Shown here: one piece after another, positions 1,431-53,676 of the stretch
Layout of the letters: every line of letters begins with the position of its first letter
Position numbering within the stretch: position 1 is the first letter of the stretch
Assembly: GCA_017558145.1 (NCBI GenBank)
Contig: JAFYWF010000116.1
Coordinates: forward strand, 4,415 to 68,414
Reading direction: 5' to 3'
Origin: Lachnospiraceae bacterium
GTDB lineage: Bacteria > Bacillota > Clostridia > Lachnospirales > Lachnospiraceae
Length of the DNA: 64,000 nucleotides
Program-made: the position numbers and the translations under genes
Notes under the pieces: model-generated
Told to the model about the DNA's origin: nothing
Databases searched by the model: none
Seen by the model: only the letters and a program-made list of their open reading frames with translations

Positions 1431-1451
1431 AATTCCCCCTCCTCTCAAATA

Positions 1452-1528: not shown

Positions 1529-1532
1529 TCGG

Positions 1533-1703: not shown

Positions 1704-1773
1704 ATCAAACACCTCCCCTCACCCTTAATATGCCTTTTGGCTTGTGGGTAGGGTATAAAATCTATACACTGGA

Positions 1774-2882: not shown

Positions 2883-2950
2883 TCGTACAGAATACCAAAA
2901 AACATTTCTTCTGTCAAGCATATTTTATAATATTTTCAACCAAAAATCAA

Positions 2951-3472: not shown

Positions 3473-3593
3473 TCTAATCTCACCTCCCTTGTATACACGT
3501 GCATTGATTGTATCACATACATACGAATATCTCAAACAAATTATAACATTATTTTACAAATTAAGCAGGAGCTTTTACGCTCCTGCTTGTTTA

Positions 3594-5111: not shown

Positions 5112-5144
5112 AGCGTTCTCCTTTACATCGTGAATTTCAGCCTA

Positions 5145-5182
5145 TGGTAATATTTTTGGTAATATTTTATCATATATTACCA
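5145..5182. repeat. TGGTAATAT repeats next to the integrase start (candidate integrase arm/core binding sites at the element end)
   Basis: A perfect tandem tggtaatatttt x2 (5145-5156, 5157-5168), then an inverted copy atattacca (5174-5182). It lies between the integrase start (5111) and the response-regulator stop (5242). Confidence 0.5.
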
Positions 5183-5241
5183 CATAACAAAAGCGATTTT
5201 CCTTAGTGCTTATGCGGTCTGTAAGACTTTTTATTATTTCC

Positions 5242-5931: not shown

Positions 5932-6010
5932 AATCTTTATTTCTCCTACATATTTTTATTTGACTTTATTAATCGCTACTATATGCACATCTATATTTTC
6001 TCTTTAAATA

Positions 6011-23210: not shown

Positions 23211-23259
23211 AAGTAAAATTTATTCCCCAACTGTCTTTTGTCATTGTAAAATCTTGTTC

Positions 23260-35402: not shown

Positions 35403-36530
35403 TTACTTACCTAAATACTCTTTTTCAATTATTTTCACTTGATCGCGCAGATTATATCCTGCATTAACAAGCTTCTCTGGAGTTTTCTCTCTCTTATTTT
35501 CATCTAAGCTGTATTCACTATATAGTGACATAATCTTCTCTTTCCATTTACATTGTTCCAAGGGCAAAAATGAAACATTATCACATATCTTAACTTCTTC
35601 TGTAATCTCTGAACTCGCAATACAACATACACCCGATGCTTGTGCTTCTATCATTGATAATGGTAATCCTTCAAATCGCGATGGCAAACAAAAAATATCC
35701 ATAGCAGAATACCAATTATAAATATCATCTCTATGTCCCAAAAACAAAACATCATTTTCTAATTTAAGTTCTTTAACCTTTCTCTTGACTTCTGGTAATA
35801 ATTCTCCATCTCCCAAAAGTACCAATTTTATATTGTCTACTTCTTTAGTAAGTTCATAAAACACATTTATTAAAAAATCATGGTTTTTTTGATAAACGAA
35901 TCTTCCAATGTGTCCTATAACAAAATAATCTTCCATTTCATTTGCTCTTCTATATTCTTTGCGTACTTCAGAATTAAAAGCAAATTTATCCAATTCAATA
36001 GCATTAGGCATTACTTTTATTTTCTTTTTATCTATCTGTTCTCCAAACAAAAATTCCCCGGCTTTTTTAGAGCATGCCCAATAATCTGTTGCCATTTTTT
36101 CAGTAAAATTACGTTTTGTTTCCTCATGCAATTTTATTTCCAAATCTCTTTTTTTACTATCCAGTGTATCAATACCAGCATTATGTGCATGTACAATTAT
36201 TTTTTTTACTCCTTTTTCTTTACAGATTTGTTCTACTAAGAAACTCTTCCACTGTTTTGTGTGCAAATGAACTATATCGTATCTTTCATCTAGAATTTTT
36301 TCAAATTCATATCTAAACTGTTCCTTATTATCTTCAGCATAACAAGATATATAATGAATTTTGCTACCTGTTTGTATAATTTCATTTTCAAAATCAATTT
36401 TTTTACTCATAGTTGCAAAATCACAATGGAAACAATCTTTATCCATAAATTTCCAGTTATTTAGTGCATAATGCGTAATTCCCCCGTTTGAATTAGCTAT
36501 CGGAAATTGTAAAATTTTTATTTTATTCAT
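35403..36530 (-). CDS. GT4 (glycosyl transferase group 1) glycosyltransferase
   Basis: ORF 35403..36548 with FCLPSRFEGLPLSMIEAQASGVCCIAS (the E-x7-E region). The start is uncertain. ATG 36548 lies inside a leader hairpin. ATG 36530 (MNKIKILQFP) follows the U-tract but has no clear SD. Confidence 0.8.
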   Translation of the reverse strand: MNKIKILQFPIANSNGGITHYALNNWKFMDKDCFHCDFATMSKKIDFENEIIQTGSKIHYISCYAEDNKEQFRYEFEKILDERYDIVHLHTKQWKSFLVEQICKEKGVKKIIVHAHNAGIDTLDSKKRDLEIKLHEETKRNFTEKMATDYWACSKKAGEFLFGEQIDKKKIKVMPNAIELDKFAFNSEVRKEYRRANEMEDYFVIGHIGRFVYQKNHDFLINVFYELTKEVDNIKLVLLGDGELLPEVKRKVKELKLENDVLFLGHRDDIYNWYSAMDIFCLPSRFEGLPLSMIEAQASGVCCIASSEITEEVKICDNVSFLPLEQCKWKEKIMSLYSEYSLDENKREKTPEKLVNAGYNLRDQVKIIEKEYLGK

Positions 36531-36646
36531 AAAACATCGAAAAGGCATCGAAACCGAAGCCTTTTTTCCCCTTTCAACAATATTAAATCACTTCCTTGTG
36601 ACAACTTATCTCAAAGTTTTGCTTCCTTGCATCTATTCTACTTTTT
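36528..36646 (-). ncRNA. Conserved 5' leader, copy L1 (twin GGA-loop hairpins plus a terminator-like hairpin)
   Basis: In RNA sense: UGC-AAGGAA-GCA (rc 36620-36631), UCAC-AAGGAA-GUGA (rc 36588-36601), and GGCUUCG-GUUU-CGAUGCC followed by UUUU (rc 36540-36561). It is homologous block-by-block to 41455-41618. Confidence 0.5.
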
Positions 36647-36674
36647 ATATCGGAAAGTTTTTATTAATTCTTTA
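36647..36674 (-). promoter_or_regulatory. Sigma-D/sigma-28-type promoter (TAAA-N17-CCGATAT), copy L1
   Basis: Minus strand: TAAA (rc 36671-36674), 17-nt spacer, CCGATAT (rc 36647-36653). It lies just downstream of a terminator. Confidence 0.6.
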
Positions 36675-36704
36675 CCCTCTATCAATATTCACAAAACCAA
36701 CAAT

Positions 36705-36726
36705 AAGGTGCCTTTTTTGGCACCTT
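36705..36726 (-). terminator. Rho-independent terminator after the TagF-like gene
   Basis: aaggtgcc (36705-36712), loop tttttt, ggcacctt (36719-36726). The minus-strand downstream sequence is auuguugguuuug. Confidence 0.6.
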
Positions 36727-36740
36727 ACTCGTTCTTCTAC

Positions 36741-38003
36741 TTAATTGTTCATATATATACTTTTTATCACTTCTGCAAGATCCTCTGATGCATGTCCCGT
36801 AAAAACTATTCCAAGTTCATCAAATATATCATCAATAGCTATTTCATACTCTTTTTCATTGAATTTAGAAATGATTTGCTCAAGCTCATCATTATTTGTT
36901 GCTATTGCGAATGGAAATTTTGCATCAAATGTAGGAGTAATATCCTTATTGTTTCTAACATTATCCAACGGATCTGTTGCTATATTCCACATAAGCTCTC
37001 CTCTGTCATTTGCATATTTTTGTATGTCATCTGCATAAATAAACACGGGAATCTTTGCATACCCTGCTTCAAAACAGGCACTTGAATAATCTGTTATATA
37101 TCCATCCATTGCCGCCAGTATTTCATACATATCATCAGCCTTACTCTCATTTATGATTCTGTCGTTAACTTCCTCATCCTTATAGTCTTCAAAAGTAGGT
37201 GCAAGCTGTGGATGTACTCTTACGCATATATACCATGTTCCTGTGAATTTCTTTTCCAGGACATTGATAAGTCGTTTAAAATCCAAACTCCAAATTTCCG
37301 AAAACACAAACCTCTTCCCGTCTTTTGCTCCTTCTCTAAAAGTAGGTGCATACATAAGTATCTTTGCATCCAATGGAAGATTATGTTTTTTTCTAAAATT
37401 CTCTTTTTGTACTGTTCTGTCCCCGTACATCACATCCACTCTTGGAGCTCCTGTCATCTGATAGGTTCCACCGTACACAAGACCTTTTGGGGACACTTCT
37501 TCACACCATCTTGAATCTATTACCAAATCATCTATCATATCCGAGTCATTTTTGCTTACCAGATATGCCATTTTAGAAAATCCTTTTCCGCGCCAAAGTC
37601 CGGTACATTTGATTGCTATTGTATAATGATTCACATTTAAATAGTACTGGGCTTTTCTTTTAACAGTGCCATATGGTTTTCTGTAGTTATCTATCCATAC
37701 TTTGGATCTCGTAAGATAATATGCACGATTTAAAAGCGTATTGGGAACTTTTTTTATATAGTTTGGAAATTCTTTATTCATATCATTTACAAACCACACA
37801 AATTCATAATCCGGCTTTTGCTTGTGAAGTGCCTGTACAAGATATTTGGGATTGCACCCAAATCCACCTTTTCCTTCAAAGGTACATACACTGATTAGAT
37901 TTTTCTTTATAGGAAATATTCTGCATGCATAAAAGCATAAGCTATCTCCAAAAGCTTTTATTCTTCTTTTCAATATATACAATTCTGTTTTTATTCTTCC
38001 CAT
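36741..38003 (-). CDS. CDP-glycerol/polyol-phosphate transferase, TagB/TagF family
   Basis: ILMYAPTFREG, ICVRVHPQL and DGYITDYSSACFEAGYAKIPVFIYADD are classic Glyphos_transf blocks. Confidence 0.85.
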   Translation of the reverse strand: MGRIKTELYILKRRIKAFGDSLCFYACRIFPIKKNLISVCTFEGKGGFGCNPKYLVQALHKQKPDYEFVWFVNDMNKEFPNYIKKVPNTLLNRAYYLTRSKVWIDNYRKPYGTVKRKAQYYLNVNHYTIAIKCTGLWRGKGFSKMAYLVSKNDSDMIDDLVIDSRWCEEVSPKGLVYGGTYQMTGAPRVDVMYGDRTVQKENFRKKHNLPLDAKILMYAPTFREGAKDGKRFVFSEIWSLDFKRLINVLEKKFTGTWYICVRVHPQLAPTFEDYKDEEVNDRIINESKADDMYEILAAMDGYITDYSSACFEAGYAKIPVFIYADDIQKYANDRGELMWNIATDPLDNVRNNKDITPTFDAKFPFAIATNNDELEQIISKFNEKEYEIAIDDIFDELGIVFTGHASEDLAEVIKSIYMNN

Positions 38004-38027
38004 TTTTACCTCTTAAGTAAATGCATA

Positions 38028-38762
38028 TCACTTCTCTGATACTAGACTTGTCAAACTTTCCGGTATATTTGCTGCTGCACGCTCATAATCCTCTAAAAAA
38101 TCCACTTCAGCCCAAAAAGCATCTTCTGTAGAAACAGTTTTTATGTCGTAATTTTCTTCATCGATTAATCTTTGTATTGCACTTTCAAAATAAGCTGTAA
38201 ATTCCTTTTCTTTCAAAAGTTGTTTAGTTTTTGCTTTTAATGCAGGCAGCACCTCTTTACGAAAAGAAGCCATCCCTATAAATTCGCCTTCAGCTTCATC
38301 CAATGACATTTGCTTTGTGATTTCGATTACTTTTCCATTTTTACTACGTACCTTCATGGCTTCGTCATCACACTTTTTATAATCCACCGGAAGAATTACA
38401 TCTGCTTCTAATTTAAGCATTTTTTCAAAGATAATTGGCTCGCACAGAGTATCTGCATGCAAATATACAAAATCATCACTTAAGGCTTCCATTCCCATAT
38501 AAAACGATCCCAGCACATTCACCATTTCATAAAAAGGATTATACATTAAACACACATTGTCCATATCTTTTGTCAATTCTTCAAAGGCTTCACACTGATA
38601 TCCTGTGACAATAACTATTTTCTCAATTCCATAATATTGCAATAATTGCAGATTATATTCAATCAATTTTTTACCTGCGATTTCTGCAAAGGATTTTGGT
38701 TTCCCTTCCGTTAATTTCCCTAATCTGCTGCCTTTTCCGGCTGCCATAATAATTGCCTGCAT
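38028..38762 (-). CDS. LicC-like sugar/alcohol-phosphate nucleotidyl(cytidylyl)transferase
   Basis: MQAIIMAAGKGSRLGKLTEGKPKSFAEIAGKKLIEYNLQLL is the NTP_transferase G-rich loop. 244 aa. Confidence 0.8.
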   Translation of the reverse strand: MQAIIMAAGKGSRLGKLTEGKPKSFAEIAGKKLIEYNLQLLQYYGIEKIVIVTGYQCEAFEELTKDMDNVCLMYNPFYEMVNVLGSFYMGMEALSDDFVYLHADTLCEPIIFEKMLKLEADVILPVDYKKCDDEAMKVRSKNGKVIEITKQMSLDEAEGEFIGMASFRKEVLPALKAKTKQLLKEKEFTAYFESAIQRLIDEENYDIKTVSTEDAFWAEVDFLEDYERAAANIPESLTSLVSEK

Positions 38763-38764
38763 AT

Positions 38765-39913
38765 CTAATTCTCCATTGCTTTCTTAAATATTTTTTTAAT
38801 AATATCCGATTCTTCACTTAATTTATCATTAGAAAGATTTCCTGTTACCTGACCGCTCAATTCATCCAGCATTTGCTCTTGTATTCCCAAATCAGATAAT
38901 AAATACAAGATGTCTAATTTATTCAAAAATACCTTAAACATATTTTCTGCCTCTTCTGCAGACTTTACTTTTGAGTATCCTAACCCATTTAATATCTGAT
39001 TTATTTTTTCTTGATTAACTTCATATTCATATTTTATCCATGCGGGGTATAGTGCCAACAATCCTGCTCCGTGACTGGTATCTGTATATGCTCCTATAGA
39101 ATACTGCATACGATGCGGTAAACATGTTCCTACATTTGCAAGATTCATTCCTACTATCATGCTGGCATAACACATCTGACTTCGTGCTTCATGATTATCC
39201 AAATCCTGTTTTAATAACGAAAGATTATGACCTACAATCTGAATTGCTTTTTCTGATATCATCTCAGAAAACGGATTTGCTTTTACAGCTACATAACTCT
39301 CAATAGCATGCGCCAAAACATCAAATCCTGTCTCCATAGTTATTTTTTCCGGAACTGTCCATGTAAACATATCGTCTACAATCGCAATTTTCGGCAAAAT
39401 ATTTTTACCGCGTATTCCTGTTTTAATTCTGTGATATGTGCTGGAAATAATTGCTCCTTTACTTAGTTCAGTGCCGGTTCCTGCTGTTGTAGGAATTGCA
39501 ATAATTGGCAGAGTCTCTTTTCTCGGCTCTTTTCCTTCCAATAAATATGTCTCGATAGGCTCTTCTACAGGTATTCCTACTGCAACTGCTTTGGCAGCAT
39601 CAATAGCACTTCCTCCACCAAATCCAATGACACAATCAATTGATCTTTCTTTTCCAATCTCAATTGCCTGTTTTACTTCTTCTAACTTTGGATTTTGACT
39701 AATCTTATCGTAAATATATATCTTATTATTTCCGATTATCTCAACAATTGCTTGCTGAATTAACTGCTGATATCCATGTTTCACAAGACTTCTTCCGGTA
39801 GTAATAATCATTATATTTCCGATTAATCTCGCTTTTTCTTTTTGCAATGCCTCTTTCCATATATTGGTTCCAAAATAAATCTTAGTAGATAATTCAAAAG
39901 TAAATTCTTTCAT
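38765..39913 (-). CDS. Iron-containing (group III) alcohol dehydrogenase family oxidoreductase
   Basis: VIGFGGGSAIDAAKAVA, with downstream His-rich metal ligands (DVLAHAIE, CLPHRMQYS). Confidence 0.8.
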   Translation of the reverse strand: MKEFTFELSTKIYFGTNIWKEALQKEKARLIGNIMIITTGRSLVKHGYQQLIQQAIVEIIGNNKIYIYDKISQNPKLEEVKQAIEIGKERSIDCVIGFGGGSAIDAAKAVAVGIPVEEPIETYLLEGKEPRKETLPIIAIPTTAGTGTELSKGAIISSTYHRIKTGIRGKNILPKIAIVDDMFTWTVPEKITMETGFDVLAHAIESYVAVKANPFSEMISEKAIQIVGHNLSLLKQDLDNHEARSQMCYASMIVGMNLANVGTCLPHRMQYSIGAYTDTSHGAGLLALYPAWIKYEYEVNQEKINQILNGLGYSKVKSAEEAENMFKVFLNKLDILYLLSDLGIQEQMLDELSGQVTGNLSNDKLSEESDIIKKIFKKAMEN

Positions 39914-39921
39914 ACATTTAT

Positions 39922-41454
39922 TTACAGATTTTCTATCCGTACCTCTCTATCATTTCTTATTTTGTCCAAAATCTCTATTCTTCTGACATATAAGTCTTTT
40001 AATGAATTATAAGTTTCTTTATACAATTCATACATATATATGTATTTACGGTGATTTTCCAAGTTTGGCTTTATAATCATTCTAATTAATGCAAATTTAT
40101 TAGCTGCTTCTTTCATATTCTGATAAACACCCTGACCTGCCAATACCATCATTGCTGCACCTGATGCTGTAGTTTCGAATTCTGCCAATACCATAACATC
40201 TCTTCCCAAAACATCGGCTTTAATTTGAGATATCAGGTTTATTCTCGCCAATCCCCCTGATAAACGTACAGATTCTATGTCCACTCCTGTTTCCTTTATT
40301 GCATCAATAATATCCAAGTCAATAAAGCCTGTACTTTCAAAAACGGCTCTTGTCATATCTTTACGTGTATGCATTCTTTCCAAGCCAAAGAAAACACCTC
40401 TGGCATTATTATCCCATACCGGTGTTCTCTCTCCCAATAAATATGGTAAGAAAATTAGACCTTTGGCTCCTATTTCAGATTCATTTGCATCTTTTTCCAT
40501 GATTTCATATGGATATTGTTCTCCCTGATAATAACATTGCTTTACCCATTCTATCAATCCTCCCCCTAAATTATTGGATCCTCCAACTATATTGGCATCT
40601 TCCTGATAGAATGGAACATTATATATCTTATTACTATTAACTAAACCTTTTTTCTTGCTTAAAGCTCTAAAAACAGTTACTGTGCCGGATACATCACTAG
40701 CTTCTCCTTCTTCTGATACACCACTGCCTATAAATGAACATATTGCATCATACGAAGTTACAACGACTTTAATATCTTGATTTGAATTTATTTTCTCCGC
40801 TGTATTCCGATTAATCTTCCCAATACAAACTCCTGTATCAGTTACTTCCGGTAACTTATTTACAGATATTCCTAATTTTTTTAGAAAAACTTCAGGATAC
40901 ATCTTTTTAGCCAAATCATAATGATACTTTGTTGCATTTAAATAATCTGTAACACATTCTCCGCAAAGTTTATAGATCAAATAATCATTAGGTGTCATAA
41001 AATAACGTGTTTTTTCAAACATTTCCGGTAAATTTCTTTTAACCCATAATATTTTAGGTAACATAAGACTTACAGACATATCTAATCCGGTATTCTTTTT
41101 AACTTCTTCAAATTCTTTCATTTCTGAAATCATTTGAACTTCTTTTTCTGCACGCTTATCTGAAACCATAAACGCTTTTCCTAACGGATTTCCATTAGAA
41201 TCAACACATACCAAACAAGATGCAGATGTTGTAACTGTTATATATTCTATCTTGACATTTCCGGCATCTTTTAATGCTTTTCTCATTACGATTTCAGCCT
41301 TTTCCCACCATTCCGCAGGATCCTGCTCAACCCTTTTATCATTTATTGCTGTATTTATTGCTATAGCTGCACTTCCGAGTTTTAAACCATTCTGATTAAA
41401 AATAATACATCGTATACTTTTTAATCCCATATTAATAACCATGACATTATTCAT
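39922..41454 (-). CDS. FGGY-family carbohydrate/polyol kinase
   Basis: ORF 39922..41472, whose track start is TTG. ATG at 41454 follows AAAAGGA. VMVINMGLKSIRCIIFNQNG...QDPAEWW, and a C-terminal GGLARINLISQIKADVLG. Confidence 0.8.
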   Translation of the reverse strand: MNNVMVINMGLKSIRCIIFNQNGLKLGSAAIAINTAINDKRVEQDPAEWWEKAEIVMRKALKDAGNVKIEYITVTTSASCLVCVDSNGNPLGKAFMVSDKRAEKEVQMISEMKEFEEVKKNTGLDMSVSLMLPKILWVKRNLPEMFEKTRYFMTPNDYLIYKLCGECVTDYLNATKYHYDLAKKMYPEVFLKKLGISVNKLPEVTDTGVCIGKINRNTAEKINSNQDIKVVVTSYDAICSFIGSGVSEEGEASDVSGTVTVFRALSKKKGLVNSNKIYNVPFYQEDANIVGGSNNLGGGLIEWVKQCYYQGEQYPYEIMEKDANESEIGAKGLIFLPYLLGERTPVWDNNARGVFFGLERMHTRKDMTRAVFESTGFIDLDIIDAIKETGVDIESVRLSGGLARINLISQIKADVLGRDVMVLAEFETTASGAAMMVLAGQGVYQNMKEAANKFALIRMIIKPNLENHRKYIYMYELYKETYNSLKDLYVRRIEILDKIRNDREVRIENL

Positions 41455-41618
41455 TGTTAATTTCCTTTTCAATTATAATCAGTCTCTTTTCAAAATTCTA
41501 CTTTTGTAAAAGTAAAAAGACATCGAAAATCGATGCCTTATAAATCATACTAATATTATATCACTTCCTGTGATACTCTTATACGAGTTTTGCTTCCCTG
41601 CATCTTATTCTGATAATA
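41455..41618 (-). ncRNA. Conserved 5' leader, copy L2 (twin GGA-loop hairpins plus an intrinsic-terminator-like hairpin)
   Basis: In RNA sense: UGC-AGGGAA-GCA (rc 41591-41602), AUCAC-AGGAA-GUGAU (rc 41560-41574), and GGCAUCGA-UUU-UCGAUGUC (rc 41519-41537) followed by UUUUUACUUUU (rc 41507-41518). The SD AAAAGGA and the ATG at 41454 follow. Confidence 0.5.
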
Positions 41619-41645
41619 ATATCGGAAATTTTGCGAATTAGCTTA
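41619..41645 (-). promoter_or_regulatory. Sigma-D/sigma-28-type promoter (TAAG-N16-CCGATAT), copy L2
   Basis: Minus strand: TAAG (rc 41642-41645), 16-nt spacer, CCGATAT (rc 41619-41625). Confidence 0.6.
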
Positions 41646-41665
41646 ACCTTTTTGGTAATATTCCT

Positions 41666-43462
41666 TTACTTGCTCTTGGGTAAATACAGCTCTGGTACAT
41701 TAGTAATTATATCTGTCACACCAAACATAGCATATTTTTCAAGATGCTTTTCCTTTAGCTGTCTTGTCTGCCCAAAGAAAGGCTCTTCTCCATTCCATGC
41801 TCTTACAGGAATACCTTCTGTCTGTTTGATTTCTTCTTCATCTACAGACAATCCTCCAATCCATGGATGAATTGCATCTGCTTCGTATTTTAGATAATCC
41901 AATCGACACTGTTCCATATCCACTCCCAAGATTCCGGTTTGAGCATATGGTGCTAACTTCTTAATTAGTCCCATGGATTCTGGTAGGAAGGAAGAATATA
42001 CAATATTCTCTTCCAAACCATAATCAGCTACCAATTGAAGAACTTTTTCTTCCATACCTTCATAGCGGATAATACTGTTCTTCAGCTCAATGTTAATCAG
42101 AAATTTTCCCTCCGGTCTTTCTTCTTCACACACAGAATATAATAAACGGAATACTTCTTCTAAGGTAGGAATTGTTGTATATGTTCCATTTACACTTGCA
42201 ATTTTCAAGTTCTTCAGTTCTTGCAAAGTATAATCACAAACCCTTCCTTTTCCATTGGTGGATCGATCTACAGTTTCATCATGTATTACTACCAATTCTC
42301 CATCTTTGGTCAGCTGAACATCCAATTCGATTCCAGTAATACCTTTGATTTCAGAAGCTGCTTTGAATGCTTCCAATGTATTCTCAGGATAAGCCATACT
42401 GCAACCTCTATGAGCCCAGAATCGAATATTCTTTTTATCTATACTATTGTTTGTATCTTCTTTATCATCTTGAGAATTACTGTTCAATTTCTTAGTCTCT
42501 TGTTTTCGATTTCGATATTTCAGATACTGTTCCATTTTATCTGCCAACCAAATACTCTCTTCCGGTGTTACAATAGGGACCATTCCATCTAATATCTGTT
42601 CCACAAAAGCCTTAACTTCATATCGAAGCCCTTGCCCTTCATACGGGAATTCGTAAATGTCTTTTTTGTTAGGGTTTTCATATCTTACTTCAAATCGTCT
42701 TGTTAACCACCAAGGAGCCTGCACCACAATATAACCTACACTTCCTGCAATTACTAATTGGCCCTCCGACTTTACTTCCAATCCCGTTTTCGCTAACCCT
42801 GTCGCACTACCATATTCAAAACTTGCTTTAGTATAGATATCCGTTCCGTTTATAGCCAAAGCGGAATGAAACTGAAGATCTGTTTCTTCCGTTCCCAATA
42901 GTTTCAAGGAAGGAAGCATGGAATAAGTACCTAATTCTAAGAAACTTCCTCCATGATTAGAATCTAAAATTTCTCTCATATTGGTTGAACCTAATTTAGA
43001 AAAACATGCTTCCACATCATATATTTTTCCTATTTTTCCGCTTTTAATTACCTGTTGCAATGCCTGGAATCCAGGACAATACGCTGTCTTGATACCTTCC
43101 ATTAGTACAAGATTATTTTCTTCTGCTATAGCAAATAACTCTTCCGCTTGTGCTTTAGAAAATACCATAGGCTTTTCACACAATACATGTTTTCCTGCCA
43201 ACAACATCTTTTTGGCATATTCATAATGTGTTTCATGCGGTGTTGCAATATATATAGCATCTACAGCCTCTATAAATTCATCTTTTTTATCGGTATAATT
43301 TGAAATAAACAATTCCGTTGCAAATAATTTTGCACTATTAAGATTAGGATTATAAACTGCACTTACTTCTATTCTTTCCACATATCTTGCTTCAGGTACA
43401 AAACGCTTTGCAATTCGTCCAGTTCCAATGATACCTAATCTTATTTTATAATTATTTTCCAT
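41666..43462 (-). CDS. Fusion: Gfo/Idh/MocA oxidoreductase (N) + glycerophosphodiester phosphodiesterase GDPD (C)
   Basis: N-terminus IRLGIIGTGRIAKRF...EKPMVFS. C-terminus FWAHRGCSMAYPENTLEAFKAA...GIELDVQLTKDGELVVIHDETVDRSTNG (GDPD HR..E..D..H pattern). The N-domain is a paralog of the C-domain of 48834..50177. Confidence 0.75.
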   Translation of the reverse strand: MENNYKIRLGIIGTGRIAKRFVPEARYVERIEVSAVYNPNLNSAKLFATELFISNYTDKKDEFIEAVDAIYIATPHETHYEYAKKMLLAGKHVLCEKPMVFSKAQAEELFAIAEENNLVLMEGIKTAYCPGFQALQQVIKSGKIGKIYDVEACFSKLGSTNMREILDSNHGGSFLELGTYSMLPSLKLLGTEETDLQFHSALAINGTDIYTKASFEYGSATGLAKTGLEVKSEGQLVIAGSVGYIVVQAPWWLTRRFEVRYENPNKKDIYEFPYEGQGLRYEVKAFVEQILDGMVPIVTPEESIWLADKMEQYLKYRNRKQETKKLNSNSQDDKEDTNNSIDKKNIRFWAHRGCSMAYPENTLEAFKAASEIKGITGIELDVQLTKDGELVVIHDETVDRSTNGKGRVCDYTLQELKNLKIASVNGTYTTIPTLEEVFRLLYSVCEEERPEGKFLINIELKNSIIRYEGMEEKVLQLVADYGLEENIVYSSFLPESMGLIKKLAPYAQTGILGVDMEQCRLDYLKYEADAIHPWIGGLSVDEEEIKQTEGIPVRAWNGEEPFFGQTRQLKEKHLEKYAMFGVTDIITNVPELYLPKSK

Positions 43463-43516
43463 ATCTTTTATAAGAATTATTTCTTCCTTTTCTCCTTTTG
43501 TATGAACGGCTTCTGT

Positions 43517-44449
43517 TCATATGTTATCTATTTGTTTGGCCATGGATACTCCGGTATCATAAATTACCTTTAGTACTGCTTCTGATAGTTTATGAGGAAA
43601 ACTATTCATGGCAGGAAATGTTTCAAAACTTAAGGTACCTTTATATCCTATTTCTTTTAATGCCTTTAAAATTCCTTCCCAATCAGCACCTCTATCTTCT
43701 CCCTTACCGAATGTGTATGGTAGCTGATGAGTATCGTCTGTTCCATTATTTTCATGAAGATGTAATACCTTAATTCTTGAACCCATTTTCTTAATAAAAT
43801 CATATGGATCTTTCTTTGCCAATTGAAGATGTCCGGTATCAAGGCAGAAACCAAATAATTCTTCCCCTGCATACTCATTAAGAGTGTCTATATACCAAAT
43901 AGCATCTTCTACATCAGAACATACACCTTCTACAATTCTTCCTCCAACACTTTCGTAAAGATTTTCTAAACAAACTCTAACACCACACTGTTTTAACAAT
44001 GGCACCAACATCTTAAAATATTCCAGATTCGTTTGCTTTTCTGCTTCTTTTCCTTTGCTATATTGTAATTTAAAAGGATGGATTACTACCCACGGTACTC
44101 CCATGGCTTCCGCAATAATAATACTTTTAGGAATTACATTTCCTTGCATATACGCCGTTGCTTTTCCATTTCCCGGTACATACACAGGATATGGTGCATG
44201 CATCTGCGAAGGTAATAAACCATACATATCCATTGCATGTTTATATTTTCCAAAAATAGTTACCAACTCCGGTATCTCTTTGTCAAAAAACTTATTTAAT
44301 TTTCCTGCATATACATTGCTATTGATTAAAAATGCATCTAGATTAAAATCCACCTTGGTAAATCCAGCATTTGCAATTTTTTGAAATCCCTTCGTTATAT
44401 CGCCTTGTTCTGTAACAATTCCTTTTGTTTGTACTCCTATTGTCAACAT
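43517..44449 (-). CDS. Xylose-isomerase-like TIM-barrel sugar(-phosphate) isomerase/epimerase
   Basis: VCLENL...FCLDTGHLQLA...VLHLHENNGTDDTHQLPYTFG...GTLSFETF. Confidence 0.7.
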   Translation of the reverse strand: MLTIGVQTKGIVTEQGDITKGFQKIANAGFTKVDFNLDAFLINSNVYAGKLNKFFDKEIPELVTIFGKYKHAMDMYGLLPSQMHAPYPVYVPGNGKATAYMQGNVIPKSIIIAEAMGVPWVVIHPFKLQYSKGKEAEKQTNLEYFKMLVPLLKQCGVRVCLENLYESVGGRIVEGVCSDVEDAIWYIDTLNEYAGEELFGFCLDTGHLQLAKKDPYDFIKKMGSRIKVLHLHENNGTDDTHQLPYTFGKGEDRGADWEGILKALKEIGYKGTLSFETFPAMNSFPHKLSEAVLKVIYDTGVSMAKQIDNI

Positions 44450-44458
44450 ATTTTTCTC

Positions 44459-46495
44459 CTATACATCATACAAATCATGATAGCATCTATATTTAATTCC
44501 CATACTATCTAATTGTGCTCCAATTGGTCCATAATATTGGTTTGCAATAAACACCAATCTTTCTTTCTCAGGAACTTCTAAAATTGCTTTCGGTGATTTA
44601 ATAATTAATCCAAATCTTGTCGTGTTCCATATGGAAGAATCGTTATCCACTAAAAATTCTGGTCTATATTTAGTACCCCAAATTTCTGTAAAATTATACG
44701 CCATAACTCCAGCCCCAAACAAAATAATCTTTTTATTTGGCTGATTCAAATACTCTTCCAATCGAATAACCTCTTCCCATTCATTTGCTATACTTCCTAA
44801 CAAAGAAATATAGGGCATGTGTAAATCATTTGGTGCTTTATTAAAGATTCCTTCTGTGTTAAATATCAAACGTCCTGCATAATGCTGTCTTCTGAGTTCG
44901 CCGATGATTCTATGCCAATCTGTGGTTTTATTTCCTCGTCCCATAGTATAGGTATATGGTATCTGCCTATCATTATGAATTCCATCATTATCATTTATAT
45001 GTACTAATTTAAGTAAATTGCCTGCCTCCTCTATCATAGTACGAAGGTTCTTGGATAATACATTCCCATTACCAACATCAATACTAATTCCAATACATTC
45101 CTTATCACAGATGCGATTAATCTGCCTTGCTATTCTTTTTAAATTAGTTATCTCTGATGCTTCACTGCAAATATATTCTTGTTGCTTAGAGATCACATAC
45201 CCATTTTCAAGATAGATTTCTATTTCCTTATCTATCAAGAGATCAACAAAACTTTCCAAGATATATGAAATAATACGTGTAGAGGCTACTCCTTCTGTAT
45301 TGATTACAATATAGCTTACACCCATGTCCTCCGCTATCATTACTGCATGAAAAAACTGTTCTTCATCTAAATCAATTCCCTTTAAGATTATCCCTGTTGG
45401 AACCGGCGTGCTATTCTGAGAGATTACTCCATCCTGCCATTGTTTATATTCATCCAAATCTTCATAGTTTATTTCCGTTTCTGTAAATCCCTGTTCACAT
45501 AAGAATGCCGGAACATCTTCCCTCCACACATGTTTCATATAAGGGATTCCTGTTTTAAATTTTCTATCCTTCATTACTCCAATACTTTCTCCTGTCATTA
45601 GTTGTAAATTCTTATCTGCTTTTTCTATGGATTCTGAACCTAAGATAAATTCTCTTCTGAAATCATAATAGAAAGGCGACTCTTTTGCATAATCCCACCA
45701 CAATTGCTCCATTTCAAAATGTCCAATTTTAGGATTCCAAGGTTTTCCCGCCAAAAAATGTACCAGCGTTACTTTTTCTTTCGCTTCTTTGTAACCAACA
45801 CCAAAATTGTGTGCAAATCTGGCATATAAATTATATTTAACAGTTTCTACGAATTTTACATCTTTCCAATGAACATAATTCAACAAATCCTGATCCGGTG
45901 TTTCCAACCGATAATCATACTTTTGGGCTACTTCCATGTATGCCTTTAATCCATATTTTTCTCGAAGTAGCTTTAAGTTCATTAATAATACACCAGAATT
46001 AAAATAGGTGAATCCTTCCCTTACATGTTCTTTGAACATTTCATCACGATATTGAAACACACCAATACCGGAAAATGGTTCCGGACAAGCACACAAAGCA
46101 TTTCCATTAAATTCTGTATGATATAGTTCTTTTAAGGAATGATTTACAACAATATCTACATCCAGATACAAAATTCTCTCTATTTCCTCCGGTAATATTT
46201 CCGGAAGCACCAATCGATAAAAAGACTCCACCGGCCAATTTGCATATTCTGTACATTCTTTTGGAAAATAAGATGGTTCAATCTGCAACCAATGCACATA
46301 TCCCCCATAGGATTGTATCAAGTTTTCTAAACAATGTTTTTCTTTTTCAATCAGTTCGCTTTGCAATAGATAAATATGCATCTGAACATCTTTACCTTGG
46401 TTTTCAAATAAAGACATCAACATTACATAAGTATATCTGACATAATTTCTATCCAATGCAACTGCAATATTCATTCTGCTATCATCCATGTGCAT
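44459..46495 (-). CDS. Triple fusion: GT8 glycosyltransferase - xylose-isomerase-like TIM barrel - Rossmann-like FGxG...DN..W module
   Basis: N-terminus MNIAVALDRNYVRYTYVMLMSL...LYLDVDIVV...FNSGVLLMNL (GT8). Middle LVHINDNDGIHNDRQIPYTYTMGRG...RLIFNTEG, parallel to the 43517 protein. C-terminus KKIILFGAGVMAY...LVDNDSSIWNTTRFGLIIKSP. Confidence 0.7.
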   Translation of the reverse strand: MHMDDSRMNIAVALDRNYVRYTYVMLMSLFENQGKDVQMHIYLLQSELIEKEKHCLENLIQSYGGYVHWLQIEPSYFPKECTEYANWPVESFYRLVLPEILPEEIERILYLDVDIVVNHSLKELYHTEFNGNALCACPEPFSGIGVFQYRDEMFKEHVREGFTYFNSGVLLMNLKLLREKYGLKAYMEVAQKYDYRLETPDQDLLNYVHWKDVKFVETVKYNLYARFAHNFGVGYKEAKEKVTLVHFLAGKPWNPKIGHFEMEQLWWDYAKESPFYYDFRREFILGSESIEKADKNLQLMTGESIGVMKDRKFKTGIPYMKHVWREDVPAFLCEQGFTETEINYEDLDEYKQWQDGVISQNSTPVPTGIILKGIDLDEEQFFHAVMIAEDMGVSYIVINTEGVASTRIISYILESFVDLLIDKEIEIYLENGYVISKQQEYICSEASEITNLKRIARQINRICDKECIGISIDVGNGNVLSKNLRTMIEEAGNLLKLVHINDNDGIHNDRQIPYTYTMGRGNKTTDWHRIIGELRRQHYAGRLIFNTEGIFNKAPNDLHMPYISLLGSIANEWEEVIRLEEYLNQPNKKIILFGAGVMAYNFTEIWGTKYRPEFLVDNDSSIWNTTRFGLIIKSPKAILEVPEKERLVFIANQYYGPIGAQLDSMGIKYRCYHDLYDV

Positions 46496-46566: not shown

Positions 46567-46594
46567 TAAAGTTTTATCGTTTTCTTTCCGATAT
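46567..46594 (+). promoter_or_regulatory. Sigma-D/sigma-28-type promoter (TAAA-N17-CCGATAT) for the plus-strand glycan operon
   Basis: TAAA (46567-46570), 17-nt spacer, CCGATAT (46588-46594), 34 nt upstream of the ATG at 46629. Confidence 0.55.
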
Positions 46595-47831: not shown

Positions 47832-48812
47832 ATGTTACAATTCGAACCATCTTATTTTAACGCAGAAGACCGCGATGGTTTCCACATCAAATCTATGGTA
47901 AAACGCTGCTGGGCTGTTCAGCTTAAGGTTCTATCAGAAATTGATGCTATCTGCAAACGCCACAATATTATGTATTATGCTGAATGTGGAACTCTTTTAG
48001 GCGCTGTCAGACATGGTGGCTTTATTCCTTGGGATGACGATTTAGATATTGGTATGCGACGCGTGGATTATACCCGCTTTCTTCATTATGCAAAAACAGA
48101 ACTTCCGGAAGGATATTCTATTATTAATGTAAAGGGAAATGGTATCCAATTAATTTGTAGAGTTGTAAATACCCTTTTTATTACCATGAATCCTAAACAA
48201 CTAGAAGAATTCTATGGTTTTCCCTATATTGGCGGTATTGATATTTTTATAACCGATAATATTCCTAAAAACAAAAATGAAGAAAATGTTCAACTGGAAT
48301 TATTGGCCGCCGTTAACAGCTTAGCCATTAATTGGGATAAAAAATTTTCTAATACACAATCTGATAATCTGGATGTAGAATCTGTAGAAAATGCTTCTAT
48401 GGAAGAAAAAATGGAATTAGTCAAACAAATTGAAGAATTATGTAATATAAAATTGGATCCAAACAAATCCATGAAACGTCAGCTACTTATTCTATCAGAT
48501 CAGATTTGTGCCATGTATTGGGATGACGAACCAAACGAAGTTTCCTTAATGCCTGATTTGGTGCTTAAAAGAGAGTTTCGTTTTCCGGTAAGCTATTATG
48601 CCTCTACCATAGATATGCCGTTTGAAAATACTACCATTCCTGTACCGAAAGAATATGATAAAATTTTACGAAAACGATATGGTGACAACTATATGACTCC
48701 AATCCAATGTACAAGTTCTCACAATTATCCTTTTTACTGTCATCAGGAAAAACGTTTATTCGCTGAATTTGAAAAACAGAATCTACCAATTCCTGCTTAT
48801 TTGAAAGAATAG
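47832..48812 (+). CDS. LicD-family phosphotransferase, copy 2
   Basis: AECGTLLGAVRHGGFIPWDDDLDIGMRRVDYTRF. Confidence 0.85.
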   Translation: MLQFEPSYFNAEDRDGFHIKSMVKRCWAVQLKVLSEIDAICKRHNIMYYAECGTLLGAVRHGGFIPWDDDLDIGMRRVDYTRFLHYAKTELPEGYSIINVKGNGIQLICRVVNTLFITMNPKQLEEFYGFPYIGGIDIFITDNIPKNKNEENVQLELLAAVNSLAINWDKKFSNTQSDNLDVESVENASMEEKMELVKQIEELCNIKLDPNKSMKRQLLILSDQICAMYWDDEPNEVSLMPDLVLKREFRFPVSYYASTIDMPFENTTIPVPKEYDKILRKRYGDNYMTPIQCTSSHNYPFYCHQEKRLFAEFEKQNLPIPAYLKE

Positions 48813-48833
48813 TCTCCTACAGGAGGTTTGCTT

Positions 48834-50177
48834 ATGAAAAAAGTTATTACATACGGTACTTATGATTTATTTCATCAAGGTCATTATAATCTGTTAAAAC
48901 GTGCCAAAGAATTAGGCGATTACTTAATTGTTGGTGTTACTACAGAGCATTACGATGAATCCAGGGGAAAGGTTAATGTCATTGATCCTTTACTGGAACG
49001 CATTGAAAATGTCCGAAAAACCGGGTTTGCGGATATGATTATTGTAGAAGACCATGAAGGACAAAAAATTGAAGATATTCAAAAATATAATGTGGATATT
49101 TTTACCTTAGGATCTGATTGGGTTGGTACTTTTGATTATTTAAAACAATTTTGTAAGGTTATTTATTTAGATCGTACGCCCAATATTTCCTCTACTCAAT
49201 TACGTCAAACCAGAAGCCAGATTATTCGTACCGGTATTATCGGCACCGGACGAATCGCACCCCGTTTTCTTTCTGAATCCAAATACGTAAGTGGAATTGA
49301 AATTACTTGTGCATACAATCCGGAAAAAGCAGAAGGAAAATTATTTGAAATCAATCATGATATCAAATGCTTTTCAGATTCCATTGATGAATTTTTATCT
49401 TATGTAGATGCCGTTTATATTGCATCTCCCAACGAAACTCATTATGAATACGCTAAAATTGCTTTAGAACAAGGTAAACACGTATTAAGTGAGAAACCGT
49501 TAGCTTTTACCAAAGAAAAAACTTTAGAGCTACATGATTTAGCAGATGCCAATAACTTAATTTTATTAGAAGGAATTAAAACTGCTTATTGTCCCGGTTT
49601 TCAGCAGCTTCTTAACATTGCCCATAGTGGACGAATTGGCAAAATATACGATGTGGAAGCCACTTTTACACGTCTGGCAAATCCGGAAGCCAGGGAATAC
49701 ACAGATTATAACTATGGTGGTTCTTTTTTGGAATTTGGTGGATATACCATGCTTCCTATTATTAAATTGTTAGGAACCGATTATAAAGAGATACAGTTTA
49801 ATAGTATCTTGAATGAAGATGGTAATGATATCTACACTAAACTTCACATAAAATATAAAGATACTATGGCATCCGCAAAAACCGGTATTGGTATTAAATC
49901 AGAAGGACAATTGGTTATCGCTGGAACCAAAGGATATATTTTAGCCGAATCCCCTTGGTGGCTTACGAAAAAATTTGTAGTTCGCTATGAAGATCCTACC
50001 GTGATAGAAACCTACGAACCTAATTTCCAAGGAGATGGTCTTCGTTATGAAATTGCAGAATTTGTTGCATCTATTAATGGTTACAGCAAAAATAGCTATA
50101 AATTAACCAAAGAAGAATCTCTTGCCATGGCTGCCATTACAGAAGAATTTATGAAACTCCGTAAGGAACAAAAATAA
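48834..50177 (+). CDS. Fusion: TagD-type (HxGH) cytidylyltransferase (N) + Gfo/Idh/MocA oxidoreductase (C)
   Basis: ORF 48828..50177, whose track start is TTG. ATG at 48834 lies 7 nt after AGGAGG. KKVITYGTYDLFHQGHYNLLKRAKELGDYLIVGVTT, then IRTGIIGTGRIAPRF...EKPLAFT. Confidence 0.8.
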   Translation: MKKVITYGTYDLFHQGHYNLLKRAKELGDYLIVGVTTEHYDESRGKVNVIDPLLERIENVRKTGFADMIIVEDHEGQKIEDIQKYNVDIFTLGSDWVGTFDYLKQFCKVIYLDRTPNISSTQLRQTRSQIIRTGIIGTGRIAPRFLSESKYVSGIEITCAYNPEKAEGKLFEINHDIKCFSDSIDEFLSYVDAVYIASPNETHYEYAKIALEQGKHVLSEKPLAFTKEKTLELHDLADANNLILLEGIKTAYCPGFQQLLNIAHSGRIGKIYDVEATFTRLANPEAREYTDYNYGGSFLEFGGYTMLPIIKLLGTDYKEIQFNSILNEDGNDIYTKLHIKYKDTMASAKTGIGIKSEGQLVIAGTKGYILAESPWWLTKKFVVRYEDPTVIETYEPNFQGDGLRYEIAEFVASINGYSKNSYKLTKEESLAMAAITEEFMKLRKEQK

Positions 50178-52634: not shown

Positions 52635-53495
52635 TTAGCCAAGTAATGCCAATACACCCTGATTAGACTGGTTAGCCTGAGCCAACATAGACTGTCCTGC
52701 CTGAGCAAGAATGTTGTTGTTAGAGAATCTAACCATTTCAGCTGCCATATCTGTATCACGAATCTGGCTTTCTGCTGCTGTTGTATTTTCTACAACGTTG
52801 TCTAAGTTTCTAATTGTGTGTTCAAGACGATTCTGGATAGCACCGAGTTCAGAACGCTGTGTAGAAACTGTTTCAAGCGCTTGCTTAACATAATTGTTAA
52901 GGCTGGAGAATTTACTTGTTGTAAATACTGTTGTAGAAGCTGTAATGCTTGCCTGTGTATAGAATGTAGAAATAGAAGAATAGTAAGATGTAGATAAACT
53001 ACTACAACTCATAGAATCAATAGTAATCTTAATATACTGTCCTGTTTCTGCACCAACCTGAAGACCGATATTAGTGAATTTACCATCTAATAAGCTCTTT
53101 TCGTTGAAAGTTGTTGTAGATTTAACTCTGTCGATTTCGCTCATTAACTGCTGAACTTCCATAGCGATGTAGTTACGGTCTGCTGTTGCAAGAGTTCCGT
53201 TTTCACCTTTAACTGCTAATTCGTTCATACGCTGTAACATATCATGTACTTCAGTTAAAGCACCTTCTGCTGTCTGTACACAAGAGATACCGTCAGATGC
53301 GTTTGCAGAAGCCTGTGTAAGACCTCTAATCTGTCTTCTCATTTTTTCAGAAATAGCTAATCCAGCTGCGTCATCTGCTGCACGGTTAATTTTGTAACCG
53401 GAAGATAATTTTTCTGTGGATTTTGCCTGTGCACCTGTTGTGATGTTAAGCATTCTCTGAGAATTCATTGCTGTAAGATTGTGTTGTACTACCAT
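52635..53495 (-). CDS. fliC: Flagellin (short, 286 aa; D0/D1 core with a minimal Ser/Thr/Tyr-rich central segment)
   Basis: N-terminus MVVQHNLTAMNSQRMLNITTGAQAKSTEKLSSGYKINRAADDAAGLAISEKMRRQIRGLTQA. C-terminus LGAIQNRLEHTIRNLDNVVENTTAAESQIRDTDMAAEMVRFSNNNILAQAGQSMLAQANQ. It has a strong SD (GGAGG). Confidence 0.95.
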   Translation of the reverse strand: MVVQHNLTAMNSQRMLNITTGAQAKSTEKLSSGYKINRAADDAAGLAISEKMRRQIRGLTQASANASDGISCVQTAEGALTEVHDMLQRMNELAVKGENGTLATADRNYIAMEVQQLMSEIDRVKSTTTFNEKSLLDGKFTNIGLQVGAETGQYIKITIDSMSCSSLSTSYYSSISTFYTQASITASTTVFTTSKFSSLNNYVKQALETVSTQRSELGAIQNRLEHTIRNLDNVVENTTAAESQIRDTDMAAEMVRFSNNNILAQAGQSMLAQANQSNQGVLALLG

Positions 53496-53650: not shown

Positions 53651-53676
53651 ATATCGGAAGGTTTTTTTATTACTTA
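53651..53676 (-). promoter_or_regulatory. Sigma-D/sigma-28-type promoter of the flagellin gene (TAAG-N15-CCGATAT)
   Basis: Minus strand: TAAG (rc 53673-53676), 15-nt spacer, CCGATAT (rc 53651-53657). The -35 context GGTTAAG is the same as in copy L2. Confidence 0.7.

Follow-up and report, generated by a model that had tools for sequence, protein, structure and literature searches.

A four-gene operon in a gut Lachnospiraceae bacterium probably makes a cytidine diphosphate (CDP)-activated small alcohol, CDP-X, and joins X-phosphate, as a phosphodiester, to flagellin's O-glycan while that protein is still in the cytoplasm and awaits export. The operon occupies positions 36741-41454, minus strand, of the DNA stretch analysed here (64,000 nucleotides (nt) of GenBank assembly GCA_017558145.1, contig JAFYWF010000116.1, positions 4,415 to 68,414 of the forward strand; hereafter the window), and would be transcribed from a promoter of the SigD (sigma-28) type. 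It encodes an FGGY-family kinase, an iron-dependent alcohol dehydrogenase (Fe-ADH), a LicC-like nucleotidyltransferase (NTase) and a TagF-like phosphotransferase. An original prediction had named these four genes in this order within a unit bounded by a promoter, L2, and a terminator, and had started the kinase at 41454; it was right on each of these points. The elements of the operon, with product lengths in amino acids (aa), are as follows.

39922..41454, minus strand: FGGY-family kinase (510 aa; Pfam FGGY_N and FGGY_C)
38765..39913, minus strand: group III Fe-ADH of FucO/DhaT/butanol-dehydrogenase type (382 aa; Pfam Fe-ADH and ADH_Fe_C)
38028..38762, minus strand: LicC-like NTase, presumed CTP:alcohol-phosphate cytidylyltransferase (244 aa)
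36741..38003, minus strand: TagF-like CDP-alcohol phosphotransferase, GT-B catalytic domain only (420 aa; no transmembrane (TM) segment)
41619..41646, minus strand: SigD/sigma-28-type promoter L2, TTAAG-N15-TTCCGATAT (consensus match)
41455..41618, minus strand: 5' leader of the kinase gene (164 nt; RNA fold)
36702..36729, minus strand: intrinsic terminator ending the operon (predicted hairpin and T-run)

The four open reading frames (ORFs) are intact and tightly spaced, with 8, 2 and 24 nt between successive genes. The kinase ORF is listed from a TTG at 41472, and we place its start at the ATG at 41454 because a Shine-Dalgarno sequence, GAAAAGGAAA (41470-41461), lies 6 nt upstream of it and because the orthologues have 510 aa. 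Directly 3' of the last gene, the terminator consists of an 11-pair stem (5 G-C), a 6-nt loop and then GTTGGTTTTG. The genes are not chance neighbours, as 63 species-representative genomes contain the triad of kinase, Fe-ADH and NTase.

Enzyme families of the operon

Pfam matches were scored against the curated gathering thresholds, which all four proteins exceed by far, and the families first assigned to them were borne out throughout. The kinase is above threshold in both of its domains, with 148.6 bits for FGGY_N and 103.8 bits for FGGY_C. In NCBIfam, its best model is XylB with 267 bits (cut-off 380), and it reaches none of the named specificity groups of the family (XylB, GlpK, GntK, AraB, FucK, RhaB, LsrK), all scores staying below the equivalog cut-offs; a role as canonical glycerol kinase was rejected on the GlpK model (190 bits for a cut-off of 590). 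Orthologues that are 53-88% identical occur in at least 63 species, while the next FGGY relatives are at most 30% identical and annotated xylulokinases about 30%. The orthologues themselves are publicly annotated as 'xylulokinase' or 'FGGY-family carbohydrate kinase'. A tblastn search of plasmids with the kinase returned XylB-like proteins only (about 30% identity) and no copy of the gene cassette. The kinase has the presumed catalytic Asp236 and the ATP motifs. In the subfamily alignment D236, G257-T258 and G400-G401 are among the invariant residues, and so is the Asn that opens the phosphate-1 motif, N8-M-G-L-K-S, at a position where other FGGY kinases usually have Asp. The strand TTSASC we take to correspond to the strand that bears the substrate-binding residues in glycerol kinase. 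By these features the kinase appears to form a distinct, sharply bounded specificity group of the FGGY family.

The Fe-ADH matches Pfam Fe-ADH with 134.1 bits and ADH_Fe_C with 140 bits, and its translation shows the motifs GGGSAID, D-x3-H (FDVLAH) and the H...H metal ligands. In NCBIfam it scores 202 bits on lactaldehyde reductase, 202 on ErcA and 183 on SarD, and the sulfoacetaldehyde, 4-hydroxybutyrate, choline and phosphonoacetaldehyde reductase models lie at 170-183 bits, whereas the glycerol dehydrogenase and glycerol-1-phosphate (G1P) dehydrogenase models give only 33 and 31 bits; no equivalog cut-off is reached. Relatives in the PDB are 1vlj, 1o2d, 3bfj and FucO. The enzyme thus falls into the branch that works between primary alcohols and the corresponding aldehydes, and reduction of a free aldehyde ahead of phosphorylation fits these scores, as models of aldehyde-reducing enzymes reach about 200 bits and those of glycerol and G1P dehydrogenases about 30.

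In the NTase, NTP_transf_3 (51.7 bits) and NTP_transferase (47.4 bits) are recognised by Pfam, and the N-terminal motif reads MAAGKGSRLG. Its best solved relatives, aligned over nearly the full length, are the phosphonate cytidylyltransferase PntC (6pd1, E 6.9e-16) and pneumococcal LicC (1jyk, E 5.3e-15), which agrees with the label 'LicC-like' given to it at the outset. The IspD profile, by comparison, is matched at residues 1-72 only (32 bits). Judging by these relatives and by its CDP-dependent partner enzyme, the NTase would use cytidine triphosphate (CTP).

The TagF-like protein carries Glyphos_transf (PF04464) at residues 28-359 with 157 bits (cut-off 22.1) and resembles Staphylococcus epidermidis TagF (3l7i, E 3.4e-19) in a part that covers TagF residues 354-651 only. 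Its His126 (NVNH) and His264 (VRVH) align with TagF His444 and His584, the catalytic positions as read from the mutant entries 3l7j (H444N) and 3l7m (H584A). The extra N-terminal domain of the polymerase type (TagF/TarL) is absent, and the best NCBIfam model is the non-polymerising TarF, although the score of 65.9 bits falls far short of the cut-off. These features favour one or a few transfers over a long chain, and the poly(polyol-phosphate) that had been offered as an alternative product seems the less likely one for a protein with a catalytic domain only. In the proposed pathway, the enzyme would take a CDP-activated donor and release cytidine monophosphate (CMP).

The cassette in other genomes

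A profile scan with one genome per species yielded 63 loci with kinase orthologues (single loci are given below by our L numbers). Next to the kinase are found an Fe-ADH in 59/63 loci, an NTase in 58/63, an aldolase in 52/63 and a TagF-like gene in 41/63, with absences mostly at contig ends. The hosts are mostly Lachnospiraceae (bacterium A4 (L032), Acetatifactor, Hungatella, Eisenbergiella, Butyrivibrio) and Selenomonadaceae; they include Selenomonas ruminantium HD4, S. caprae, other Selenomonadales and Massilibacillus, and single metagenome-assembled genomes (MAGs) of Paenibacillaceae, rumen Treponema and Oscillospiraceae. Cultured carriers are S. ruminantium HD4, S. caprae mPRGC8, Lachnospiraceae bacterium A4 and Kineothrix sp. 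MB12-C1. Lachnospiraceae, Selenomonas, Treponema and Paenibacillaceae are mostly flagellated. The locus of the window was also found, with identical proteins, on contigs of several metagenome assemblies.

The strongest argument on the nature of the product comes from the transferase that accompanies the cassette. In nine loci LicD lies directly upstream instead of a TagF-like gene, and in an unbootstrapped neighbour-joining tree of the kinase these LicD-type loci group together as one subclade inside the TagF-type. As the same supply genes serve two unrelated families of CDP-alcohol phosphotransferases, their product should be a CDP-activated alcohol phosphate, a donor for phosphotransfer onto glycans. 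The two types of loci also differ in their surroundings. Among the TagF-type loci longer than 15 kb (n = 33), 30 contain a fusion of a TagD-like cytidylyltransferase with a GFO/IDH/MocA oxidoreductase (TagD-GFO) and 25 a GDPD protein, and a protein with at least 7 TM segments occurs in two. By contrast, such a protein is present in five of the seven long LicD-type loci, which have no TagF-like gene, carry LicD directly upstream of the aldolase and in no case (0/7) include a TagD-GFO gene. The locus L022 (Hungatella MAG, 1-21521) surrounds the cassette with a Wzy_C polymerase/ligase-like protein, a Polysacc_synt flippase, glycosyltransferases and an MBOAT protein, and by this gene content appears to be a Wzx/Wzy polysaccharide locus; a flippase is also present, by Pfam, in L046. 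Altogether the cassette stands in membrane-protein-rich polysaccharide loci in L022, L025, L027, L036, L038, L046, L048 and L052, where LicD replaces the TagF-like gene except in L046. The cassette is therefore not specific to flagellin loci as had been supposed, a subclade being found in Wzx/Wzy polysaccharide loci with a LicD transferase.

The operon had also been called self-contained, which the relatives make doubtful. Directly upstream of the kinase, 52/63 loci carry a class II ketose-phosphate aldolase of the fructose-bisphosphate aldolase (FBA)/tagatose-bisphosphate fold (PF01116), which is absent from the window and from about ten further loci in different parts of the kinase tree. The module would thus normally comprise five genes, of which the window appears to have lost one. 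In the aldolase the motifs that bind zinc and dihydroxyacetone phosphate (DHAP) are conserved, and the alignment to bisphosphate aldolases ends at residue 237, leaving the C-terminal 35 residues unaligned, a weak hint that its aldehyde partner may be unphosphorylated. The repeated loss of the aldolase hints that its product may be obtainable from general metabolism.

Beside the cassette of S. ruminantium HD4 (L029, 474-4199), a class V aminotransferase and a thiamine pyrophosphate-dependent decarboxylase resemble enzymes of 2-aminoethylphosphonate biosynthesis, so that this island may provide for a phosphonate decoration as well. The cassette was not found described in the open literature that was searched. 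Full-text searches aimed at this set of enzymes, or at flagellin bearing phospho-polyol, led only to the systems of Clostridioides difficile and Pseudomonas aeruginosa, and a literature search on flagellin glycosylation in Lachnospiraceae and Selenomonas gave nothing useful.

The flagellin island and its SigD-type promoters

The operon lies in an island of about 49 kb (14.8-63.8 kb of the window) with more than 25 glycosylation genes, among them GT2, GT4 and GT8 glycosyltransferases, two GT2-TPR and CgeB/DUF3880-like transferases, an aminotransferase, an acetyltransferase, methyltransferases, two LicD and three cytidylyltransferases. In the island no real ORF is predicted to contain more than one TM segment. 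For a polymer of the wall or capsule, a lipid-linked primer, a flippase or an exporter would be required. The same island encodes the presumed glycan carrier, whose central 60 residues are 42% Ser/Thr:

52635..53495, minus strand: flagellin (286 aa; Pfam Flagellin_N and Flagellin_C; own SigD-type promoter)

The island thus suggests an entirely cytoplasmic protein glycosylation, and a flagellin glycan is its likely target because the membrane proteins are missing, the promoters are of SigD type and the flagellin is rich in Ser/Thr.

Promoter L2, TTAAG-N15-TTCCGATAT at 41646-41619, is a putative promoter that matches the SigD/sigma-28 consensus TAAA-N13-16-GCCGATAW (PMC3865298). The motif TTCCGATAT occurs exactly four times in the 64-kb window for 0.65 expected occurrences; all copies are intergenic, oriented toward a gene and preceded by TAAG or TAAAG. 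From the motif count in the window, the copies are:

53651-53659, minus strand: ahead of the flagellin gene
46586-46594, plus strand: ahead of the GT2 operon
41619-41627, minus strand: ahead of the kinase operon
36647-36655, minus strand: ahead of the next glycosyltransferase gene

By this pattern, four SigD-type promoters, placed on both strands, would serve the flagellin gene and three transcription units for glycosylation. A scan of the relatives for the SigD motif returned scattered matches only and was left out of the evidence.

Downstream of L2, the leader of the kinase gene folds into two small hairpins whose loops carry GGA (about 41602-41591 and 41575-41559), followed by a terminator-like hairpin with a U-run (41539-41517; minimum free energy of the leader -30.1 kcal/mol, z = -3.0). 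About 110 nt of it (41618-41517) are repeated in a second copy (36646-36540, minus strand) before the next gene, and both copies fold alike into two GGA-loop hairpins and then a U-run hairpin. At gathering thresholds, no Rfam family matched anywhere in the window, leaders included. An 18-nt core motif of the leader, searched in 79 loci, was present only in contigs of the same lineage (L001-L003). GGA-hairpin leaders resemble the CsrA-binding leaders of flagellin mRNAs. The leader could act as a CsrA-type site, as a transcription attenuator or as a short SigD-driven RNA. The gene behind its second copy encodes a GT4 protein (35403-36548, minus strand); the listed ATG at 36548 falls within the leader hairpin and the ATG at 36530 (MNKIKILQF...) is the likelier start. 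In contig L002 this gene is split into ORFs of 78 aa and 287 aa.

Among the relatives, Lacrimispora (L005/L006), L016, L017 and L063 have a flagellin gene, adjoined by a GT2-TPR gene, at a distance of 1-5 kb upstream from the cassette block. The proposed link to flagellin glycosylation thus gained from the SigD-type promoters, from the 49-kb island free of membrane proteins and from these relatives; it does not extend to every cassette.

Immediately upstream of the operon, the island continues with three genes that have homologues (of the genes in 41666-46495) upstream of the cassette in the TagF-type loci L004, L008, L009, L018 and L019. They were assigned by Pfam, and the best NCBIfam match of the AP_endonuc_2 proteins, a weak one, is the cobamide-remodelling phosphodiesterase CbiR:

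44459-46495, minus strand: GT8 and AP_endonuc_2 fusion
43517-44449, minus strand: AP_endonuc_2 protein
41666-43462, minus strand: GFO/IDH/MocA and GDPD fusion

On the plus strand, a LicD gene (47832-48812) is followed by a TagD-GFO fusion, together 47832-50177. On the minus strand are a second LicD (19672-20550) and a fusion of a methyltransferase with CTP_transf_like (24844-27183, 779 aa). These are further CDP-dependent modules, and with them phosphodiester-linked groups of several kinds may be present on the flagellin glycan.

Further observations concern other parts of the window. Two PD-(D/E)XK/YhgA-type transposase-like genes lie in the island (18514-19521 and 53797-54717, minus strand), the former with four tandem 21-nt repeats inside it (18700-18804). 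In mid-island, an 857-aa protein without Pfam or NCBIfam match adjoins a helix-turn-helix and M78 peptidase (IrrE-like) regulator (20637-24339, minus strand). The left end of the window (660-7498) bears the mobile-element hallmarks of a Mob_Pre relaxase, a MazF-like toxin and a tyrosine integrase, and then a two-component system.

Proposed pathway, rival explanations and known systems

In the pathway that we favour, the FucO-type Fe-ADH would produce an alcohol from a small, free carbonyl compound (an aldehyde or a ketone), which would be supplied by the DHAP-dependent class II aldolase in most relatives and by general metabolism in this genome. The atypical FGGY kinase would then phosphorylate the alcohol, the LicC-like NTase would join X-phosphate and CTP to CDP-X, and the TagF-like enzyme would move X-phosphate onto a sugar hydroxyl with release of CMP, once or a few times. 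The order of reductase and kinase, the use of CTP, the flagellin-glycan acceptor and the identity of X are what we infer in this scheme. That the operon passes its own CDP-alcohol-phosphate donor to the TagF-like enzyme is the simplest reading of the gene order. X should be a sugar-derived alcohol and not an amino acid, since the kinase is of the FGGY family and the Fe-ADH of the aldehyde type, with a DHAP aldolase beside them in relatives. Our best guess is a C3 unit, for example a non-canonical isomer of glycerol phosphate, with a tetritol, a pentitol or a diol as remaining candidates: a C3 unit is favoured because the aldolase is dispensable and was lost repeatedly, and an isomer other than sn-3 is attractive because these islands already have a TagD-like enzyme.

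A bolder extension, which we consider possible but doubtful, is that the cassette together with the aldolase makes a CDP-alcohol new for these enzyme families and is, in gut and rumen anaerobes, portable between flagellin (with a TagF-like transferase) and Wzx/Wzy polysaccharides (with LicD). Candidates for it, put forward just as tentatively, are a glycerol phosphate isomer made without homology to the Gtp enzymes, a CDP-diol or a CDP-tetritol. If this were true, the SigD promoter and the duplicated CsrA-type GGA leader would tie the modification to the checkpoint of flagellin synthesis.

Several observations weigh against the pathway that we favour. The U-run hairpin inside the leader could stop most transcripts that start at L2. 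The Asn at the phosphate-1 Asp site of the kinase means that its chemistry may be unusual, and as its nearest relatives are xylulokinases (about 30% identity), TarJ/TarI-like steps that start from a ketose substrate fit equally well. The TagD-like-oxidoreductase fusion accompanies the TagF-like gene in 30/33 long loci, so that the TagF-like enzyme could use the product of that fusion; we favour the product of its own operon because of adjacency. The flagellar link of most relatives depends on indirect markers, namely missing membrane proteins and the genes that co-occur, and flagellin was found within the 10-kb flanks of only 3/63 genome loci even in a relaxed search, a count that neither proves nor refutes the link because the islands are larger than these flanks.

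Rearranged into a TarJ/TarI-like order, the same enzymes could act on an uncommon free ketose (tetrulose, pentulose or hexulose), which would come from the aldolase or from the AP_endonuc_2 isomerase/epimerase-like proteins. The Fe-ADH would then reduce the ketose phosphate or the CDP-ketose, and a CDP-tetritol, -pentitol or -hexitol would reach the TagF-like enzyme. The CDP-ribitol route leads from ketose-phosphate through polyol-phosphate to CDP-polyol, and the CDP-arabinitol and CDP-6-glucitol routes from ketose-phosphate through CDP-ketose to CDP-polyol. Such an order would explain why XylB is the top model of the kinase (267 bits), with annotated relatives that are xylulokinases at about 30% identity, and AP_endonuc_2 proteins with weak psicose-epimerase-type matches do recur upstream. 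We nevertheless hold it to be rather unlikely: LicD-type loci lack the AP_endonuc_2 genes, the Fe-ADH is of the primary-alcohol/aldehyde and not of the ketone-reducing glycerol/G1P dehydrogenase type, known LicC-like NTases serve small head groups, and the independent loss of the aldolase in about ten lineages, including that of the window, is easier to understand if its product is a common triose. A C3 precursor would also be compatible with true homology to the CDP-2-glycerol pathway of pneumococci (Gtp1 reductase, Gtp3 kinase, Gtp2 cytidylyltransferase and WchX transferase), in which case the operon would add glycerol-2-phosphate. The four functional classes are the same, TagF-like transferase included (cps23FK/WchX is listed as TagF-like), and yet homology appears improbable, for Gtp3 is annotated as 'putative phosphotransferase' and Gtp1 as 'glycerol-2-phosphate dehydrogenase' where a 510-aa FGGY protein is found here, the Fe-ADH reaches only 31-33 bits on glycerol and G1P dehydrogenase models, and the kinase-profile scan, which used close-relative peptide patterns, yielded no locus from Streptococcus.

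The pairing of donors and transferases might also be crossed, the TagF-like enzyme using the CDP-compound made by the TagD-GFO fusion and the product of kinase, Fe-ADH and NTase going to a LicD of the island. The fusion co-occurs with TagF-like genes in 30/33 long loci and never in LicD-type loci, where the supply cassette clearly serves LicD, and the window has two LicD genes. Little credence is due to this crossing, as the TagF-like gene directly adjoins the NTase or kinase gene, in the same operon, in 41 loci, as the long loci L010 and L066 have a TagF-like gene and no TagD-GFO gene within 10 kb, and as the LicD gene at 47832-48812 directly precedes the TagD-GFO gene on the other strand, so that those two would pair with each other. 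A target in the cell envelope, be it a teichoic-acid-like or a capsular polymer, would make the proximity of flagellin incidental. Wall teichoic acids and capsules are the classical products of TagF-like enzymes, the same supply cassette serves Wzx/Wzy polysaccharide loci in one subclade, and only few relatives have flagellin within 10 kb. A 49-kb island without flippase, polymerase, ABC exporter, polyprenyl-phosphate transferase or any multi-TM protein is difficult to reconcile with such a polymer, all the more so as 31/33 long TagF-type loci likewise have no multi-TM (at least 7 TM) protein; SigD-type promoters stand ahead of the operon, its neighbours and flagellin, GT2-TPR genes are present and FtaD provides a precedent, and we judge an envelope target distinctly improbable. 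A catabolic operon for a sugar or polyol (xylulokinase and alcohol dehydrogenase), merely lying beside glycosylation genes, could claim the public annotation of the orthologues as 'xylulokinase' or 'FGGY-family carbohydrate kinase' and is scarcely credible: across 63 genomes the kinase is coupled to an NTase (adjacent in 58/63) and a CDP-alcohol transferase, no transporter or regulator is present, and the genes always lie within glycan-biosynthesis loci and score below every equivalog cut-off. On this coupling, this setting and the XylB score below its cut-off, a catabolic xylulose operon was rejected.

By analogy, the operon with its relatives appears to represent a widespread variant of CDP-dependent flagellin post-glycosylation, kin in kind to the system of C. 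difficile and analogous to the pneumococcal glycerol-2-phosphate side chain, and not something categorically new. Lachnospiraceae flagellins are dominant immune targets of the gut microbiota, and to our knowledge their glycans are essentially uncharted. If the favoured pathway is true, a recognisable cassette predicts a phosphodiester-linked, negatively charged substituent on flagellin, which gives glycoproteomics a chemical hypothesis, and a second, chemically different CDP-dependent modification of this kind would stand beside C. difficile Fta. The cassette may further serve as a marker for annotating islands in thousands of MAGs, where its genes are now called 'xylulokinase' and 'alcohol dehydrogenase'. 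The combination of the supply module with LicD in polysaccharide loci would mean that donor modules and transferases shuffle between protein and polysaccharide glycosylation.

The nearest known system is FtaABCD of C. difficile (CD0241-CD0244; b-type PA1088-1091 in P. aeruginosa), which has in common with the window a LicC-like NTase and a TagF-like enzyme in a flagellin locus. FtaB (CD0242; Q18CY2) is an NTase that resembles CTP:phosphocholine cytidylyltransferase, with CDP-threonine as its proposed product, and FtaD (CD0244; Q18CY0) is TagF-like and in vitro moves N-methyl-phosphothreonine from the CDP donor to N-acetylglucosamine on FliC. In the window the NTase gene (38028-38762) adjoins the TagF-like gene (36741-38003), and flagellin (52635-53495) is encoded in the same island. 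Both systems are all cytoplasmic and have no export machinery, as judged for the window from its genes alone, and the fta genes of C. difficile are SigD-dependent (PMC3865298). The supply sides differ: Fta uses FtaA, a HAD/ThrH-like phosphotransferase acting on threonine, and FtaC, a CDP-threonine N-methyltransferase, where the window has the FGGY kinase and the Fe-ADH. Compared by family descriptions, the operon of the window is not a member of the Fta group and would work like one in its last two steps. With FtaD as a biochemically shown precedent, the presence of a TagF-like enzyme within a flagellin locus is less of a novelty than the original prediction implied.

For the pneumococcal block wchX-gtp1-gtp2-gtp3, in which cps23FK/WchX is listed as TagF-like (serotypes 15 and 23; cps loci in the accession range CR931632-CR931722), the comparison was made by annotation only: both systems are contiguous blocks of the same four functional classes that add, or would add, an alcohol phosphate to a glycan. 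The reported order of the CDP-2-glycerol pathway is reductase, kinase, cytidylyltransferase. The pneumococcal acceptor is a repeat unit of a Wzx/Wzy capsule, whereas we propose a protein glycan. The families of kinase and reductase are probably different, as the Gtp annotations compare with an FGGY kinase and a FucO-type Fe-ADH, and the aldolase of the relatives has no Gtp counterpart. Of the parallel to Gtp1/Gtp3/Gtp2 drawn at the outset, the logic of the pathway therefore holds and only the logic, the Fe-ADH being of FucO/DhaT type and the kinase without equivalog match.

With the wall teichoic acid enzymes TagD/TagB/TagF and TarI/TarJ/TarL and with TagF-like capsule polymerases, the window has in common the Glyphos_transf GT-B domain, two catalytic His and, presumably, CDP-polyol donors. 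It differs from them in having no polymerase-type N-terminal domain, no machinery for a lipid-linked acceptor and no exporter, in a cytidylyltransferase that is LicC-like and not TagD-like or IspD/TarI-like, and in an Fe-ADH as reductase. TarJ is a medium-chain zinc-dependent alcohol dehydrogenase (Zn-ADH), and synthases of the CDP-ribitol type (TarI/TarJ, Bcs1) pair an IspD-type cytidylyltransferase with a Zn-ADH or a short-chain dehydrogenase/reductase; in the window the IspD match is confined to residues 1-72 and the reductase is an Fe-ADH. In deoxyhexose catabolism, FucK, FucA and FucO are an FGGY kinase, a DHAP aldolase and an Fe-ADH, and the same three enzyme classes co-occur in the relatives, lactaldehyde reductase being the best model of the Fe-ADH. 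The aldolase of the relatives has, however, the PF01116 fold and not that of fuculose-phosphate aldolase, and the genes are joined to a module for nucleotide activation and transfer in loci that are biosynthetic.

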